Below, piece after piece: positions 1 through 7,210 of a stretch of DNA of 16,778 bases. Source of the DNA: Escherichia coli (GTDB taxonomy: Bacteria; Pseudomonadota; Gammaproteobacteria; Enterobacterales; Enterobacteriaceae); NCBI RefSeq assembly GCF_003334255.1, contig NZ_QOWU01000076.1; one strand, 5' to 3'. The notes under the pieces were generated by a model. It saw nothing but the letters and a program-made list of their open reading frames with translations. It made no database searches and had not been told where the DNA came from. Position 1 is the stretch's first letter. Every line of letters begins with the position of its first letter. A program made the translations under genes and the position numbers.

Positions 1-1
1 G

Positions 2-268
2 CAGTATCACGCAGAGCTGAAGAGTCTGACCGGTGCAGAAAGAACGGCGTTCATTGACGAGAACAACGGAAAATTGTTGATGAACGGGCTTATGCAGGAT
101 ACCCGGAAGAGACTGAAGGATTTGCGCAAACAGCGCGATGCCATTTATGCCGACAGTTCTCTCAGTCTGGCGCAGCAGGCGGCGATGGTGAAATCGGTAG
201 AGCGGGATATGAAGGTTGCCGTGGATCGCTTTAACCGCGAGTACAACAAAAAAGTGGGAGTGGATTAA
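2..268 (+). CDS. 3' end of a protein-coding gene that begins upstream of the window (C-terminal ~88 codons; charged, probably helical); product not identified
   Basis: Frame 2 is open from the window edge to the TAA at 266-268; the listed 64-aa ORF (74-268) is the tail of this longer frame. No family recognised from sequence. Confidence 0.35.
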   Translation, partial: QYHAELKSLTGAERTAFIDENNGKLLMNGLMQDTRKRLKDLRKQRDAIYADSSLSLAQQAAMVKSVERDMKVAVDRFNREYNKKVGVD

Positions 269-276
269 CAGAAATG

Positions 277-298
277 GCCCCGTACGGAAGTGCGGGGC
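277..298 (+). terminator. Stem-loop just downstream of the preceding stop codon (9-bp stem with one G-U pair, GGAA loop); weak or atypical terminator
   Basis: gccccgtac-ggaa-gtgcggggc begins 9 nt after the stop at 266-268, but the 3' flank (tgattaag) is not a U-tract, so canonical intrinsic termination is uncertain. Confidence 0.25.
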
Positions 299-418
299 TG
301 ATTAAGAAATAAACACACATTAACCTGTAATAACCGGAGCTATTAACATATAGTCAGAAAGAGTATTTCATGTGAGACAGAGAGCCGATTTATGTTTAAT
401 GAAGAAAAAGTTGCGTAA

Positions 419-943
419 ATGGCAGCGTATTTGCTGAAAAAACATGGCGGATCTATGCGTTTCATTAAGCTGATGTATCTCTCTGACCGCAAAGCAATGG
501 AGTTGTATGGTTTTCCCATTAGTGGTGATCATTATTTCTCTATGAACAAAGGACCCGTTTTATCGCAGACATATTCTTTGGTTAAGGATGGAAGTGAAAA
601 CGAGTACAGTCCGTGGGAATCATGGATATCTGATGTAGCGGATCATAAGGTTGAAATGTGGCGTACATTTTCTTCTGTTGATGAGCTGGGGGAGTTATCG
701 CCCGCAGAAATAGAGTCAATGGACATAATTTTTGGTCAATATGGAGGTTGGGATGCGTTCAGGCTTTGTGATGAAACTCACAGAATTTGCGGTGAGTGGC
801 GCGATCCGCATGGTTCATCAATTCCAATCAGCCTTAAGGATATATTTATTGCTCTTGGAAAGTCGCCAGAAGCAGCAACAGTAATGGCGAATAGCATTTA
901 TGCGCAAAATAATCTTGATATATTATTAAGTGATCTGAGGTAG
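419..943 (+). CDS. Panacea-domain (DUF4065, GepA/SocA-like, COG3600 phage-associated) protein, 174 aa
   Basis: The N-terminal region has the pattern I associate with DUF4065 (IKLMYLSDRKAMELYGFPISGDHYFSMNKGPVLSQTY, i.e. K-L-x-Y-L ... GPV ... Y). An in-frame ATG at 392 is followed by 8 codons and a TAA at 416-418 directly abutting this ATG. Confidence 0.55.
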   Translation: MAAYLLKKHGGSMRFIKLMYLSDRKAMELYGFPISGDHYFSMNKGPVLSQTYSLVKDGSENEYSPWESWISDVADHKVEMWRTFSSVDELGELSPAEIESMDIIFGQYGGWDAFRLCDETHRICGEWRDPHGSSIPISLKDIFIALGKSPEAATVMANSIYAQNNLDILLSDLR

Positions 944-1031
944 TCGGGATGATGTTCAGCCCTTATTTGTATTTACCGGGGAGGGAAGATGTTTAATTCC
1001 GATTCCCCGGCTCCACAGGCCTAACCTAACT

Positions 1032-1676
1032 TTATGTAACAGTCCATGCAGGGCTGAAATCTGCCTGCTGAAATAACTCCGTTAGCCCGCTAATCTGCTT
1101 TAACCTCAGAACTTCATCCTGGTCCATCCCCAGTTCTGTTCCGATACGTTCATCAGTCCAGCCAAGACGTGAAAGATCTCTGACAATATCAGACATTGAG
1201 GTTATCTGGTGTTTCCCCCTGGCTCTGTTATGTCGGATAGTCGCGGCAATACGTGAGGTTTGTCCCTTTCGGTCTGGATTAATACAGGTTACTGGTAGCC
1301 AGCCTTTCAGGCGTTTTCCAGTAACTGTTCTTCTACCTAGTAACTGCCTATGAAAACCATCCACCACCAGGTAATGGCTTGTTTCTTCCGAAACAACAAT
1401 TGGTTGAGTAAAACCGTCTTTTTCCAGAGATTGTTTCAGTAATTTTTTTTCGCTTGGGGCCATGACATTGGGATTATAATCGTTAGCGACAATTTCATCC
1501 GCTTTTACCCACAGCACACAGTCCACTGGTTCTTGAGCAAAGGGGCTGATCTCATGGAGTACGCAGCGGAGATGGTTCAGGGCCTGTATGGTTTTCTCTT
1601 CAGATTGTTCCTGACTGAAGTACTGTCGAATCATCTTGCTCAGCACCTCCACCTCTGGTGTCACAGAATTCCCCAT
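1032..1676 (-). CDS. ibrB: ParB-like nuclease-domain protein, IbrB-type (214 aa)
   Basis: ParB/Srx-type motif (LVVDGFHRQ) and C-terminal helix-turn-helix-like region; strong RBS (aaggaggaagga) before the ATG at 1674-1676; the start overlaps the 3' end of the upstream gene by 16 nt. Confidence 0.65.
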   Translation of the reverse strand: MGNSVTPEVEVLSKMIRQYFSQEQSEEKTIQALNHLRCVLHEISPFAQEPVDCVLWVKADEIVANDYNPNVMAPSEKKLLKQSLEKDGFTQPIVVSEETSHYLVVDGFHRQLLGRRTVTGKRLKGWLPVTCINPDRKGQTSRIAATIRHNRARGKHQITSMSDIVRDLSRLGWTDERIGTELGMDQDEVLRLKQISGLTELFQQADFSPAWTVT

Positions 1677-2887
1677 TCCTTCCTCCTTTCATTCATACGC
1701 TGCAGGTAACGTTCATAGTGCCGGGGTTTGTTGGGGCTGAAGGAGAGCGTTCGGCACCAGAAATCATTCTTTATGAGAGTCTTACAAATACGTCGCCAGG
1801 AGGGAACATCCCGGCAGCCCAGATCATTTTCCTGTTCATCCGGGATATCATCCGGGAATCCCCGGTTCTGATACCAGCGCAGGTAAACTGCTATCTTGTT
1901 GCGGTAGTGTTCAGCCGTTCTTTCCGGCATTACGTCCAGCAGGAAGAACGCATAGCTGCGCCAGGTATGATGGGATGGTTTTGACATCCGTTTACGCAGG
2001 GCAAAATAGGCCCCGCTTTCATTGGCATAAAGAGCCCCACTGGCAGCACCAGATACTCGTTCACACATCCGTGCCCAAGTTTCTGGCTCCAGAACATGAT
2101 AAAGCCATAGTCCCTTACGCTGTTCCGGGCCAAAAGGCTCACAGACACGCATATTACGTAGAGGAATGCCTGCGCGGTACATCAAATCATACAGAGGATT
2201 GTAGATTGCACAGGTTTTAGCGTTATATACCCAGATATCGTTGGTTTTCCAGTCATACAGCGGATACATGGTGTAGTAAAAACCTTCAGGTGACGCCGTG
2301 GTCCAGGGTTTATCATCTGCATATCTCAGTTTTCGTTGGGAAACCAGTCCCATAAATCTGTTAAGAGATTCATCCGCGCGGACTCCAGTCAGTATTGCCA
2401 CGCTACATTGGTTACTTGCGAACCAGGAAGAAAAAGCCGGGACAAATTCTTCAAAAGTCATGGCGTAGCGGTAAAAGGGGAAATACGCCATATCAGTAAT
2501 AGCATCTTCCGGTGGCTGTCGAACCCACTCTACACCGGGCTCCCAGCATATCCACTCAGGCTGAAACTGCGAGACACCATTTACTGTCGTCAGGGGAAGT
2601 GCAACCCAGTAAAAGGTATCTGTTACATCTTGGTACATCATCCGCATCTTCTGTATATGATCAATGGTGCATTGATACTGGGCTTCCCAGTCAATGAACA
2701 ATACAGAAAAACGACGTTTCTTCCTGTAGGCCACTTCGGCTACAAGATGGAAAAGTACAGTGGAATCTTTACCGCCAGAAAAAGATAAACATACAGAAGA
2801 GAATGTTTCAAACAACCATTCAATGCGGTGAATGGCTGCTGACAAAACATCTTCTCCAGTTCTGATTTTTGTTATAGTTACCGGCAT
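1661..2887 (-). CDS. ibrA: PAPS-reductase-family PP-loop protein with extended C-terminal domain, IbrA-type (408 aa)
   Basis: PP-loop motif SFSGGKDS near the N-terminus, typical of the PAPS reductase / DndC-like ATP pyrophosphatase family; the stop at 1661-1663 overlaps the ibrB start, suggesting translational coupling. No clear Shine-Dalgarno before the ATG at 2885-2887. Confidence 0.7.
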   Translation of the reverse strand: MPVTITKIRTGEDVLSAAIHRIEWLFETFSSVCLSFSGGKDSTVLFHLVAEVAYRKKRRFSVLFIDWEAQYQCTIDHIQKMRMMYQDVTDTFYWVALPLTTVNGVSQFQPEWICWEPGVEWVRQPPEDAITDMAYFPFYRYAMTFEEFVPAFSSWFASNQCSVAILTGVRADESLNRFMGLVSQRKLRYADDKPWTTASPEGFYYTMYPLYDWKTNDIWVYNAKTCAIYNPLYDLMYRAGIPLRNMRVCEPFGPEQRKGLWLYHVLEPETWARMCERVSGAASGALYANESGAYFALRKRMSKPSHHTWRSYAFFLLDVMPERTAEHYRNKIAVYLRWYQNRGFPDDIPDEQENDLGCRDVPSWRRICKTLIKNDFWCRTLSFSPNKPRHYERYLQRMNERRKEWGIL

Positions 2888-3053
2888 ACAATCTGATAAA
2901 AATAGCGAGGGTTTGCATTTTACCTAGTAACGTTATGTAACTATTTTTTTGAATAAAGGCAATGAGATAATGATAAAAAATGTTTATCTAATGTACTGAG
3001 CTCTTCTCTTTATTGTATTAACTCTTCGATTTCAGCGGCGTTGTCGTTCAGGT

Positions 3054-3078
3054 ATAAAAAAAGGAGCCGAAGCTCCTT
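3054..3078 (-). terminator. Intrinsic terminator for the minus-strand antirepressor gene
   Basis: On the minus-strand RNA: AAGGAGC-UUCG-GCUCCUU (7-bp stem, UUCG tetraloop) followed directly by UUUUUAU; sits 5 nt past the stop codon at 3084-3086. Confidence 0.7.
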
Positions 3079-3083
3079 TGGTA

Positions 3084-3713
3084 TCAGAATTCAAATTGTC
3101 TTGCCCGCAGGCTTTTCAGCATTGGTCTGGCCCGCTGAACTACGAAACTCGACTGGTCAAGCCGTGCCGCCTCTCTCAGTAGCACATCTCTGTTCTTCGT
3201 CACCATGTAGATAGTCTCAAACGCAATGTCATACAGCTTGTTCGTGTATGAGGAGTTCAGCTCTTTCATTATGGGGTACAGCTGCTTGCTAAGGTCCTGG
3301 GCTTTTTCCATCCAGAGCTGCATGTAGCAAAGGAGGATGATTTCCTCGGCTGTGAATTGCGGCTGTGGTTCTGCTTGTACTGGCTGAATGTTGCGAAGTT
3401 TCTTTTCGCACTCGATGAAGTAGCGGCGGATCTGGCGACCTTTTTCGTTACGTTCAACCATCGCAAGCTCTTTGGCTGTGTCGAGGGTGAGGTGGTAATC
3501 CTTGCGGCGGCGGCCTGGAGTTTTCGCCAAATTTGGCGAAAATAGAATGTAGTCTAAATTTTCTACGAATCCATACTCGTTTAGCCTGGCCCGTATCCAG
3601 TTAGAAAAATCTTTACCTACCTCTAAAAATCCATGCAAATCACGCGCGTTCACCAGAAGCGTAGGTTCATTTGAGATTGTACCTTCAAACACAGGGATGA
3701 GTTGAGTGGTCAT
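3084..3713 (-). CDS. Phage antirepressor, AntA/AntB N-terminal domain protein (about 209 aa from ATG at 3711-3713)
   Basis: N-terminal motif LIPVF...LVNARDLHGFLEVGKDFSNWIRARLNEYGFVENLDY matches the AntA-family pattern as I recall it; RBS aaggagg 5-11 nt upstream of the ATG. The listed 263-aa ORF has a 54-codon upstream extension with no RBS that overlaps the conserved leader, so the shorter start is preferred. Confidence 0.6.
   Translation of the reverse strand: MTTQLIPVFEGTISNEPTLLVNARDLHGFLEVGKDFSNWIRARLNEYGFVENLDYILFSPNLAKTPGRRRKDYHLTLDTAKELAMVERNEKGRQIRRYFIECEKKLRNIQPVQAEPQPQFTAEEIILLCYMQLWMEKAQDLSKQLYPIMKELNSSYTNKLYDIAFETIYMVTKNRDVLLREAARLDQSSFVVQRARPMLKSLRARQFEF
3454..3508. repeat. 55-bp direct repeat, copy 1 (54/55 identical to 3982-4036), inside the full-length antirepressor gene
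   Basis: Direct comparison: tcaaccatcgcaagctctttggctgtgtcgagggtgaggtggta[a/t]tccttgcgg; encodes HLTLDTAKELAMV in both paralogs, while flanking coding sequence is clearly diverged. Confidence 0.8.
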
Positions 3714-3801
3714 GATGACCTCCTTTGGCTTTTTTCGAGAAATGCCACCACAAGATGTGGTGCCGGGAGGCTCGAAACGGCCCAAAAGATACCGCGGACT
3801 T

Positions 3802-3824
3802 ATTCCCCTTGCGGGTGTTGTATT
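3802..3824 (-). promoter_or_regulatory. Conserved 23-nt leader motif, copy 1 (attccccttgcgggtgttgtatt), upstream of the full-length antirepressor gene
   Basis: Identical 23-mer at 4336-4358 upstream of the truncated paralog; both leaders also share caggcataaaaaa (3883-3895 and 4405-4417). Function not determined. Confidence 0.3.
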
Positions 3825-3962
3825 CGTCGCCCTCCCGACATTGATCGGGGATGTGACCGCACACTGTGCTATCACTGAATAACAGGCATAAAAAATCCAA
3901 CACTGACGGGGTTGGTTTAATCCGCTTTTGGGAGGTTTTCGAGGCCTCGGCGCGGAGTATAG

Positions 3963-4247
3963 TCAGTATTGGACGCAGTCGTCAACCATCGCAAGCTCTT
4001 TGGCTGTGTCGAGGGTGAGGTGGTATTCCTTGCGGTTGTGACCGCCTCTACCTTTTGCTTCCCGAATTTGGGAAGCAATCATATAGTCCTGATTTTCAAC
4101 GAAACCATATTCAGCAATACGTTCTGTTATCCACGATGCAAAGCGTTTACCAACCCCAAGGAAAGCGTGTAGATTGCGAGCATTGCATAGAAGGGCTGCT
4201 TGGTTTGAGATAGAACCGTTGAATACGGGGATGAGTTGACTGGTCAT
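3963..4247 (-). CDS. Truncated AntA-domain paralog (94 aa), probably a 5' gene remnant
   Basis: MTSQLIPVF...NARNLHAFLGVGKRFASWITERIAEYGFVENQDY parallels the downstream antirepressor N-terminus; same RBS (aaggagg) and start context; the ORF ends 7 codons after the shared 55-bp core. Confidence 0.45.
   Translation of the reverse strand: MTSQLIPVFNGSISNQAALLCNARNLHAFLGVGKRFASWITERIAEYGFVENQDYMIASQIREAKGRGGHNRKEYHLTLDTAKELAMVDDCVQY
3982..4036. repeat. 55-bp direct repeat, copy 2 (pairs with 3454-3508)
   Basis: See copy 1; single mismatch at 4026 versus 3498. Confidence 0.8.
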
Positions 4248-4335
4248 GATGACCTCCTTATTTGTTTAGTTTATAACCGCCAGTTAGTAGCTGGCGGTCG
4301 GGTGTCAACTGAGCCAAATAAGAAGCTCTGGGCAT

Positions 4336-4358
4336 ATTCCCCTTGCGGGTGTTGTATT
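4336..4358 (-). promoter_or_regulatory. Conserved 23-nt leader motif, copy 2
   Basis: Exact copy of 3802-3824; lies between the candidate promoter (4466-4495) and the RBS of the truncated antirepressor gene. Confidence 0.3.
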
Positions 4359-4465
4359 ACGCCTCTCCACCCGACCTTTGTACGGATGTAACTATGCCAA
4401 ATTGCAGGCATAAAAAAGCCGCAAAGCTATCGGGTGCGGAGACCGCTTATTTGTTCAGTGCGATC

Positions 4466-4495
4466 AGTATGCGATAGCTCTGGCGGATTTGTCAA
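4466..4495 (-). promoter_or_regulatory. Candidate sigma70 promoter reading leftward toward the antirepressor genes
   Basis: On the minus strand: TTGACA (plus 4490-4495), 18-bp spacer, CATACT (plus 4466-4471). Sequence match only; no experimental support. Confidence 0.3.
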
Positions 4496-4584
4496 ATCGT
4501 GCAGTAACATCCTTTTCTTCCTTGCCATTTCTCAATGATGACAAAGGGTGGATTCGGATTGGTATTGGGACAAAAGTGAGACAC

Positions 4585-4618
4585 ACAAAGCTTTGCATCG
4601 GCTTACAAAGCTTTGCAT
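4585..4618. promoter_or_regulatory. Operator-like element: two copies of acaaagctttgcat, each with a perfect 10-bp palindrome CAAAGCTTTG, centres 20 bp apart
   Basis: Direct reading: 4585-4598 and 4605-4618 are identical 14-mers; the core is self-complementary; spacing equals about two helical turns; located about 100 bp upstream of the candidate antirepressor promoter and about 75 bp from the ynfG junction. Confidence 0.35.
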
Positions 4619-4662
4619 GTTTTTCAATGTTGGGACGTGTGAGCGCAGAAATGACGGGCTAT

Positions 4663-4776
4663 CTAATTGATTTTAAACGATACGTAACCAACTTTAAAAT
4701 CTTTGCACGCCAGTTCGCAGGTTTTACAGCCAGTACAGCGGCTGGAATCGATAAAAAATCCATATTGTGTGGTCAT
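4663..4776 (-). pseudogene. ynfG: 5' fragment of ynfG (DmsB-like 4Fe-4S subunit gene): 28 native codons, then 9 foreign codons and a stop
   Basis: Translation from the ATG at 4774-4776 gives MTTQYGFFIDSSRCTGCKTCELACKDFK (matches the ferredoxin-type DmsB/YnfG N-terminus as I recall it), then VGYVSFKIN-stop; RBS aaggag sits 7 nt upstream of the ATG and 10 nt after the ynfF stop. Confidence 0.7.
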
Positions 4777-4786
4777 GGGCTACTCC

Positions 4787-7210
4787 TTAAACCTTTTCGA
4801 TCTGGACAAGATTGCTGTGCGACGGGTTTCCCTTTGCCAGCGGTGAAGGGCGGTGAGAGGTCAGAATATTGATACTGCCGCCGTGATCGACCCGGTCACC
4901 AAACATATCCGCTTTAAGCCACGCACCTTGCCCGATGGCGGTAACGCCAGGCAGAATACGCGGAGTCACTTTTGCGGCAATCAGCATTTCTCCATTATTG
5001 TTAAATACCCGCACGGTATCGCCATGACGGATACCGCGTGCCTGAGCATCAATGGGGTTGATCCACACCTCTTGTGGGCAGGCCTGCTGTAACACATCAA
5101 TATTGCCGTAGCTGGAGTGGGTACGCGCTTTGTAATGGAAGCCCGTTAACTGCAGTGGATAGGTTTTCCGCAGGGGATCGTCCCAGCCATCAAAACCTGG
5201 GGTATACGCAGGAAGGGGATGAATAATTTCATCTTTTTTCAATTCCCAGGTATCTGCAATCTTCGCCAGTCGTTCAGAATAAATTTCGATTTTCCCCGAA
5301 GGTGTTTTCAACGGGTTTGCCTGTGGATCTTCACGGAATGCGCGGAAAGCGACGTAGTGTTCTTCCGGGCATTTTTTCTTAAAGATCCCGGTCGTTTTCA
5401 TCTCCTCGTAGTCGGGCATCTCAGGGTTACGTTCCTTCGTTTTCGCATGGAGATATTTGATCCATTCATGCTGACTGCGACCTTCAGTAAAGGTTTGATA
5501 AACGTCTGGTCCTAAGCGTTTGGCGACTTCACTCAGCATCCAGTAGATGGGTTTGCGTTCAAATTTTGCTGAGGTTGCGGGTTGGGCGAGGATCACATAG
5601 CCCATATTCCCTGCAGATTCATGAGAGATAAGGTCTTCTTGCTCTGTTGGCATCAGGTCGGGCAACAGGATATCGCAATACTTAGCCGAGGCCGTCATGA
5701 AGTGGTCAATGCCAACAATCATCTCGCACTTGCTGTCATCCTGAAGCACCTCATGGGTGTGATTGATGTCGCCATGTTGATTGATCAATGTGTTACTGGC
5801 GTAGCACCATAAAAACTTGATGGGGACATCCAGTTTTTCTTTTCCACGAACACCATCACGGGTCGCGGTCATTTCCGTACCATGGTCGATGGCATCTGTC
5901 CATGTAAAGACGGAAATCTGCGTTTTAACAGGATTCTCGAGCATCGGGAACCATTCTACCCCCAGATCCCAGCTACCTTCGCGTACGCCTGAGTTGCCGC
6001 CGTTTATGCCGACGTTGCCGGTGAGAACGGAAAGCATGGCAATAGCGCGGGATGTTTGCTCGCCGTTGGAATGTCGTTGTGGCCCCCAACCCTGACAAAT
6101 ATAAGCAGGTTTTGCTGAACCGATCTCTCGTGCCAACTGGATAATTTTTTCTGCCGGGATGCTGGTGATTTTTGCTGCCCATTCCGGCGTTTTAGCTATG
6201 CCGTCAGGCCCTTCGCCCAGAATATAGGCTTTATAATGCGCGTTACGTGGTGCGTTGGCGGGCAGCGTTTTTTCATCGTAACCAACACAATATTTGTCGA
6301 GAAATGGCTGATCGACCATGTTTTCAGTAATCAGTACCCAGGCAATCGCACAGGCCAGTGCGCCATCGGTGCCAGGGCGAATGGGCAGCCATTCATCTTC
6401 ACGCCCGGCAGCAGTGTCGTTATAACGTGGATCGATGACGATCATGCGTGCGTTTGAACGTTCGCGGGCTTGCTCGACGTAGTAAGTGACACCACCGCCG
6501 CTCATCCGCGTTTCTGCCGGGTTATTTCCGAACATAACGACCAGTTTCGTATTGGCGATATCATCCGGGCTGTTGCCATCATTGGCACCGAACATATAAC
6601 TCATTGCGGCACTGATCTGTGCGGTACTGTAGCTGCCATAGCGACTGAGAAAACCACCGCAAGAGTTCATCAGACGGTACGGGACGTTTGAGTTGGTGAT
6701 GTTTCCGCCATCTACGCCTGTTCCGTACAGGACATGTACAGCCTCATTGCCGTAATCTTTCAGGATCCGCCGAAGATTATCACTGATGGTATCTAGGGCT
6801 TCGTCCCAACTTATCCGTTCAAATTTACCTTCACCGCGCTTGCCGACGCGCTTCATGGGATATTTCAACCTATCAGGATGATTCATCCGTCGGCGGATAG
6901 AGCGCCCGCGTAAACACGCTCGAACCTGATGATTACCGTAGACGTCGTCACCTGTCGTATCAGACTCCACCCAGTACACGGTGTCATCTTTCACATGCAA
7001 ACGTAACAGACAGCGGCTCCCGCAGTTAACGGTGCAGGAACTCCAGACCGCTTTCTCTTCTACCGGAGCCTCTGCCGCCCGGACCATTTGGGAAAATGGC
7101 AGAGTGAAAGCACTGCTTGCCAGCGCAAGACTGCCAAGTGCGGAGGTTTTCATCAGACTTCTACGGCTGATTTCAGCCTTCATGAGCGCCTCTGTGGTAT
7201 GGATTTTCAT
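4787..7210 (-). CDS. ynfF: Tat-exported molybdopterin (bis-MGD) oxidoreductase catalytic subunit, DMSO-reductase family paralog YnfF
   Basis: Twin-arginine signal (ISRRSLMK), N-terminal Cys cluster (CTVNCGSRC), about 808 aa with typical DmsA-family length. Start taken at the second of two adjacent ATGs (alternative start 7213). Confidence 0.9.
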   Translation of the reverse strand: MKIHTTEALMKAEISRRSLMKTSALGSLALASSAFTLPFSQMVRAAEAPVEEKAVWSSCTVNCGSRCLLRLHVKDDTVYWVESDTTGDDVYGNHQVRACLRGRSIRRRMNHPDRLKYPMKRVGKRGEGKFERISWDEALDTISDNLRRILKDYGNEAVHVLYGTGVDGGNITNSNVPYRLMNSCGGFLSRYGSYSTAQISAAMSYMFGANDGNSPDDIANTKLVVMFGNNPAETRMSGGGVTYYVEQARERSNARMIVIDPRYNDTAAGREDEWLPIRPGTDGALACAIAWVLITENMVDQPFLDKYCVGYDEKTLPANAPRNAHYKAYILGEGPDGIAKTPEWAAKITSIPAEKIIQLAREIGSAKPAYICQGWGPQRHSNGEQTSRAIAMLSVLTGNVGINGGNSGVREGSWDLGVEWFPMLENPVKTQISVFTWTDAIDHGTEMTATRDGVRGKEKLDVPIKFLWCYASNTLINQHGDINHTHEVLQDDSKCEMIVGIDHFMTASAKYCDILLPDLMPTEQEDLISHESAGNMGYVILAQPATSAKFERKPIYWMLSEVAKRLGPDVYQTFTEGRSQHEWIKYLHAKTKERNPEMPDYEEMKTTGIFKKKCPEEHYVAFRAFREDPQANPLKTPSGKIEIYSERLAKIADTWELKKDEIIHPLPAYTPGFDGWDDPLRKTYPLQLTGFHYKARTHSSYGNIDVLQQACPQEVWINPIDAQARGIRHGDTVRVFNNNGEMLIAAKVTPRILPGVTAIGQGAWLKADMFGDRVDHGGSINILTSHRPSPLAKGNPSHSNLVQIEKV

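Follow-up and report, generated by a model that had tools for sequence, protein, structure and literature searches.

In the Escherichia coli DNA considered here, a stretch of 16,778 nt referred to below as the window, the gene ynfG breaks off soon after its start and passes into sequence of another type. The question raised by this locus is what became of the rest of ynfG, and of ynfH and dmsD, all of which an initial annotation described as absent here. YnfG is the electron-transfer subunit between YnfE/YnfF and the YnfH quinol oxidase and probably moves with YnfE via the Tat system, and the last gene of the operon encodes DmsD, the chaperone of the YnfE and DmsA signal peptides (PMC5203670). 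The features of the window are listed in Table 1.

Table 1. Positions of host, junction and prophage features in the window.
Feature	Position	Strand	Remarks
Int-distal prophage end	1-4691		Escherichia phage PhiR5_2, 100% over 1-4675
Giant LPD38 protein, end	1-268	plus	
Panacea-domain protein	419-943	plus	
IbrB-like protein (ParB-type)	1032-1676	minus	overlaps IbrA-like gene
IbrA-like PAPS reductase	1661-2887	minus	
Ant antirepressor, full-length	3084-3713	minus	
Truncated antA/antB antirepressor paralogue	3981-4247	minus	N-terminal 88-94 aa alone; pseudogene flag in G6/7
Int-distal (P') arm of the phage attachment site	4561-4691	minus	
Two 14-nt direct repeats ACAAAGCTTTGCAT	4585-4598 and 4605-4618		palindrome CAAAGCTTTG in each; 20-nt spacing
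Stub ORF	4663-4776	minus	28 native YnfG codons, 9 phage-derived codons, stop
9-bp perfect inverted repeat GATTTTAAA / TTTAAAATC	4669-4677 / 4693-4701		15-nt spacer
Attachment core TTTAAAG (ynfG nt 79-85)	4692-4698	minus	three-way alignment
Native ynfG nt 1-85	4692-4776	minus	85/85 identical to K-12
ynfF	4787-7210	minus	intact; 0 aa differences from K-12
ynfE	7271-9697	minus	intact; 0 aa differences from K-12

The ynfG stub and the whereabouts of the missing genes

Translation of the minus strand from 4776 to 4600 gave an open reading frame of 37 codons and a stop, which fill the stub interval exactly. The product reads MTTQYGFFIDSSRCTGCKTCELACKDFK (28 aa), then VGYVSFKIN, and ends with a stop at 4663-4665, while K-12 YnfG has the same first 28 residues and continues with DLGPEV. 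The break after codon 28 at the host/phage junction, as well as the nine foreign codons and the stop behind it, had been proposed in the initial annotation, and both are borne out by this translation and by the identity of the first 85 nt to K-12. These native 85 nt encode the complete set of four Cys that make up the first CxxCxxCxxxC ferredoxin motif. In PHROGs, residues 1-28 of the stub matched positions 1-28 of a 208-position ferredoxin profile, and NCBI annotates the same stretch in the near-identical genome G6/7 as a "4Fe-4S binding protein, incomplete, missing C-terminus". No full-length ORF of the DmsB/YnfG type (~205 aa, four clusters) was found at the locus, where residues 1-28 with the first Cys group alone are encoded. 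Neither was a second copy of ynfG found in the matching genomes, a query over its 3' part hitting one place in genome G1/2 and a median of one place per genome. The statements that ynfE and ynfF are intact and that no intact ynfG is encoded at this locus are thus both upheld, the gene being a stub here and split in the matching genomes.

The whole window aligned in one piece and at ~100% identity to the complete E. coli genomes G1/2, G6/7 and G8, with two mismatches in 16,778 nt against G6/7. A 446-bp indel in the antirepressor region, suggested by alignment rows of two pieces and 1947 bp, was rejected in view of this one-piece alignment; the spurious two-piece BLAST rows arise because the truncated antirepressor paralogue supplies the extra piece. 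The window itself ends inside the prophage, and the far junction described here is that of the near-identical genomes (2 nt different in the case of G6/7), not the window's own. In G6/7 the phage DNA runs on leftward for ~62 kb from the window junction to an integrase gene. Directly past int lies the 3' piece of ynfG, comprising the 533 nt after the core and annotated as "ynfG, incomplete, missing N-terminus" (540 nt), followed by intact ynfH, dmsD and clcB, so that the order reads ynfE-ynfF-ynfG'-[prophage ... int]-'ynfG-ynfH-dmsD. The int-side junction of G1/2 is found ~61.9 kb from its window-side junction. When both pieces of ynfG were joined in silico around one copy of the core, the result was identical to K-12 in 618/618 nt and 205/205 aa.

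The part of the window to the left of 4692 contains no sequence of ynfG, ynfH or dmsD, which is what a truncating deletion or an illegitimate recombination at the island border, with loss of the distal genes on arrival of the foreign DNA, would leave behind. However, genomes with 99.99-100% identity to the window carry the missing genes intact at the far prophage end, the two halves of ynfG join seamlessly into the K-12 gene, and an integrase together with a common 7-bp core is the mark of conservative exchange. For G6/7 and G1/2 the loss of these genes is refuted, and as an account of the locus as a whole it is very improbable. Judged by sequence, ynfG is split and not deleted, and ynfH and dmsD are displaced and not lost; the initial annotation had itself suggested looking further left for them, and there they are, after int in both genomes.

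The change of sequence type at 4692 is abrupt, and taken by itself it could be read as an assembly artefact in which unrelated contigs were joined at an AT-rich repeat; nothing else speaks for this. The window-side junction is present in 82 of 5426 complete E. coli genomes and the int-side junction in 89 of them (~1.6%), and carriers of the former originate from humans, cattle, pigs, birds and wastewater. The same junction in 82 independently assembled complete genomes excludes misassembly, which had been named beforehand, together with an intact ynfG elsewhere, as the circumstance that would undo the truncation. The junction is also documented in three papers, PCR-verified lysogens among them (PMC4193171), and the chance of an artefact is practically nil.

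Attachment core and repeats at the junction

When K-12 attB was aligned with the window junction and with the int-side junction, TTTAAAG was the sole sequence common to all three, located at nt 79-85 of K-12 ynfG and at 2756-2762 of the int-side junction (L004); it is also present in the inferred attP. On the outer side of both junctions the host flanks were 100% identical to K-12 up to the core. Strand exchange lies somewhere in 4692-4698, and no finer placement is possible. An att-like signature, for which it had been proposed to inspect the junction, is thus present as a 7-bp core shared by attB and both junctions, and the comparison with the reference ynfG locus puts the breakpoint in that core. 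The host/phage border was correctly recognised in the initial annotation. Its last native position needs a correction by one nucleotide, since native identity reaches 4692 rather than 4693 because the G of TTTAAAG is common to host and phage. Positions 4692-4698 represent the int-distal junction, attR in lambda nomenclature.

In G6/7 the int gene ends 52 nt before the core, and its product, encoded outside the window, is a tyrosine recombinase of 387 aa (PF00589, E = 5e-45). Exact restoration of ynfG together with the neighbouring tyrosine integrase therefore points to conservative site-specific recombination. The attB reads AAGAT-[TTTAAAG]-ATCTT, i.e., a perfect 5-bp dyad around the 7-bp core. 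The attP reads ...CAACAAC-TTTAAAG-TTGGTTAC... and contains the 14-bp palindrome CAACTTTAAAGTTG; it is reconstructed and not observed, because every matching phage record has its ends at att. Indeed, a search with 300 nt of reconstructed attP against 50,697 phage records returned no contiguous attP, half-matches at record ends being the only ones. The dyad in attB and the palindrome in attP would fit core-type half-sites of a tyrosine recombinase around an overlap region.

We are highly confident that a ~62-kb 933W-type stx-negative lambdoid prophage (PhiR5_2; integrase of the POCJ13/75/02 group) is integrated site-specifically and reversibly in ynfG. In the mechanism that we propose, the phage tyrosine integrase would insert the prophage into attB inside ynfG by conservative site-specific recombination, with the crossover within TTTAAAG at ynfG nt 79-85. 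The gene would thereby come to lie in two parts. The 5' 85 nt would remain downstream of ynfEF and run on into phage DNA, yielding the 37-aa stub, and the 3' 533 nt would end ~62 kb away with ynfH and dmsD, directly downstream of int. As long as the prophage is resident there would be no functional YnfG, and ynfH-dmsD would, from the gene order, be cut from the ynfE promoter. Precise excision would regenerate ynfG.

The perfect inverted repeat of 9 bp that spans the junction was already noted in the initial annotation, where it was considered as a possible trace of the recombination event. The repeat exists, but it is no such trace. As a functional signature of recombination it would be a target duplication, a transposon-like end or a newly made recombinase site; it is perfect, only 0.7% of dinucleotide shuffles of 4640-4730 yield one, and its host arm overlaps the core. 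However, the host arm GATTTTAAA (in ynfG orientation) is already found in uninterrupted K-12 ynfG, and the phage arm TTTAAAATC is already found in the POCJ13 and 75/02 records. The repeat is no recombination scar, since each arm pre-exists in host or phage DNA, and no target-site duplication, since it is inverted and not direct. Furthermore, complementarity in the inferred attP drops to the self-complementary TTTAAAs, the dyads actually found around the core are different ones (AAGAT/ATCTT in attB), and the junction is fully accounted for by the 7-bp core. A functional repeat is thus unlikely, and an accessory role of the phage TTTAAAATC as a binding site is just as doubtful. We treat the repeat as a juxtaposition, in which a host attB arm and a phage arm would have been brought together by integration.

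The P' arm matched the terminal sequences of the POCJ13 and 75/02 Stx records at 100% identity. Conservation of its part 4561-4656 extends, at 87.8%, to P22-like Salmonella phages that have related integrases; phages of this kind have integrase regions with ~75-77% DNA identity to the present one. On the minus strand, the two 14-nt repeats of the arm together make up a terminator-like hairpin of 17 pairs (4620->4581) with a T-rich tail behind it, a short way downstream of the ynfG stub. At both junctions, scans for consensus promoters and terminators gave counts near shuffle expectation, this hairpin being the exception. The repeats and the conservation in P22-like phages are consistent with a functional att arm, in which the repeats could be candidate sites for protein binding (Int, Xis or IHF), and the hairpin could form a block to host ynfEF transcription entering the prophage.

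Prophage contents and predicted consequences for the host

The DNA to the left of the junction is phage-like, as initially proposed, with antirepressors, an IbrA/IbrB pair, a Panacea-domain protein and the end of an LPD38 protein. In G6/7 the prophage comprises ant, ibrAB, LPD38, tail, N4-gp56-family capsid, terminase, lysis and SASA/NanS-p-type esterase genes, and further nin, O/P-type replication genes, cII-cro-cI, N, exo-bet-gam and int. A lambdoid regulatory/recombination module is thus combined with structural and late genes of the 933W type, which places the prophage among the 933W-type short-tailed lambdoid phages. Alignment to 933W extends over approximately 36% of window 1-4700, at 88.7%. 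The annotations of the G6/7 prophage and of PhiR5_2 contain no stx CDS, nor is any toxin gene annotated at the usual place of stxAB, upstream of the NanS-p-type esterase (G6/7, L003 20775-21657). By annotation, it is a stx-negative relative residing in the attachment site of Stx1a phages.

No recognised defence system was detected by PADLOC among the cargo genes by the junction; the IbrA-like protein was weakly BrxP/DndC-like, and the IbrB-like and Panacea-domain proteins were without similarity. The block of IbrB/IbrA and Panacea genes looks like a swappable moron module, because POCJ13 is without these genes near the junction, and 933W and 75/02 share them in part only; alignment to 75/02 Stx extends over 43% of window 1-4700.

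In the G6/7 copy of the prophage an IS1A has inserted into a late gene, and the genes for terminase and replication bear frameshift flags (L001 2537-3234; L003 15404-16253, 29212-30317). The counterparts of those genes in PhiR5_2 are annotated as intact. Defects in some chromosomal copies of the prophage are one possible reason and homopolymer errors in the assembly another; the G6/7 copy may be non-inducible. A second intact tyrosine integrase (15058-16338, minus) and an excisionase (16373-16624, minus) are situated at the opposite side of the host genes, directly beyond rspB. They open a Qin/dicB-type prophage, with dicB, dicA, dicC and ydfD next in G6/7. The 10.3-kb host block ynfF...rspB is therefore flanked on both sides by lambdoid prophages, which could make recombination between the prophages, or co-transduction of the host block, more likely.

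The sole start option for the distal piece of ynfG is an in-frame GTG-GTG five codons upstream of the core, with a stop before it. Functional rescue by such a phage-supplied N-terminus was considered and rejected, the product being devoid of Cys14/17/20/24, i.e., of the first Cys cluster. Since the stub comprises the first Cys group only and the 3' piece is without a proper start, a lysogen should be without YnfG, and ynfG is predicted to be inactivated while the prophage is resident. The ynfH-dmsD genes follow int and are oriented as it is, 62 kb from the ynfE promoter, and their expression must therefore rely on read-through or on internal promoters. Lysogens, ~1.6% of complete E. coli genomes, are predicted from their sequences to be without YnfG-dependent selenate/tellurate reductase activity, and they may show altered expression of ynfH/dmsD. 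With regard to the related DMSO reductase subunits, Lubitz and Weiner are said to have found in 2003 that YnfG and YnfH can replace DmsB and DmsC.

We see only a slim chance that the prophage acts as a reversible switch ("active lysogeny") of the ynfEFGH-dmsD selenate/tellurate reductase operon, or that read-through from int puts ynfH-dmsD under phage control. With a switch, certain conditions in the gut or in the absence of oxygen would lead to excision without lysis and so restore ynfG, and with read-through, DmsD-dependent maturation of DMSO reductase would be under phage control. The significance of site-specific integration in ynfG is small beyond correct annotation. The "truncated" ynfG is to be annotated as attR of a resident prophage and not as gene loss, and the exact core with the attB dyad is useful for the design of junction PCR. 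A stx-negative relative in ynfG would block, or compete for, the site of Stx1a phages, which bears on insertion-site typing of STEC.

Comparison with known phages

The gene ynfG is an already known integration site of Stx1-type and related lambdoid phages, and its occupation is ordinary, documented biology. By PCR, Gray et al. (2014) placed phiPOC-J13 in S1742 of S. flexneri, and in the homologue ynfG in MG1655 lysogens, and termed the integration site-specific (PMC4193171). Phage 75/02 has the same integration site as phiPOC-J13 (PMC5447701). The Stx1a prophage of the E. coli O113:H4 crow isolate RM10410 is described as ynfG-(62,500 bp)-ynfG (PMC10562709), and a 2024 preprint on STEC typing gives ynfG as a site of stx1a prophages.

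POCJ13 (Stx1a; KJ603229) and 75/02 Stx (KF766125), both Shigella phages, resemble the present phage in the target gene (ynfG / S1742), in the 933W-type podovirus backbone and in the size of ~61-63 kb. In addition to the identical int-distal att arm, their int region has 99.4-99.5% DNA identity to the present one over 1455 nt (int and flank). In contrast to these two, the present phage has no stx by annotation (G6/7, PhiR5_2). The prophage of RM10410 shares the junction and the insertion gene, with 96.5% identity over window 3900-5400, but unlike the present prophage it carries stx1a, and it differs by a few percent in sequence. PhiR5_2 (PV340546.1) is essentially the same phage, with 99.9% identity over the int region; its deposited genome is 61,526 bp, and MG1655 is given as the host. 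The linear record begins and ends a few bases within the att arms and therefore does not contain the core. No published integration site was found for PhiR5_2, the only paper found, in which sibling PhiR phages are used (PMC13190303), being silent on the site.

Classical intragenic integration of lambdoid phages, such as 933W/Sp5 in wrbA and phage 21 in icd, has the same components, namely a tyrosine integrase, a short intragenic core and a gene split in two. Phage 21 brings a replacement 3' end, and icd stays functional. The present phage, in contrast, supplies no replacement part for ynfG, and the 5' stub stops after nine foreign codons.
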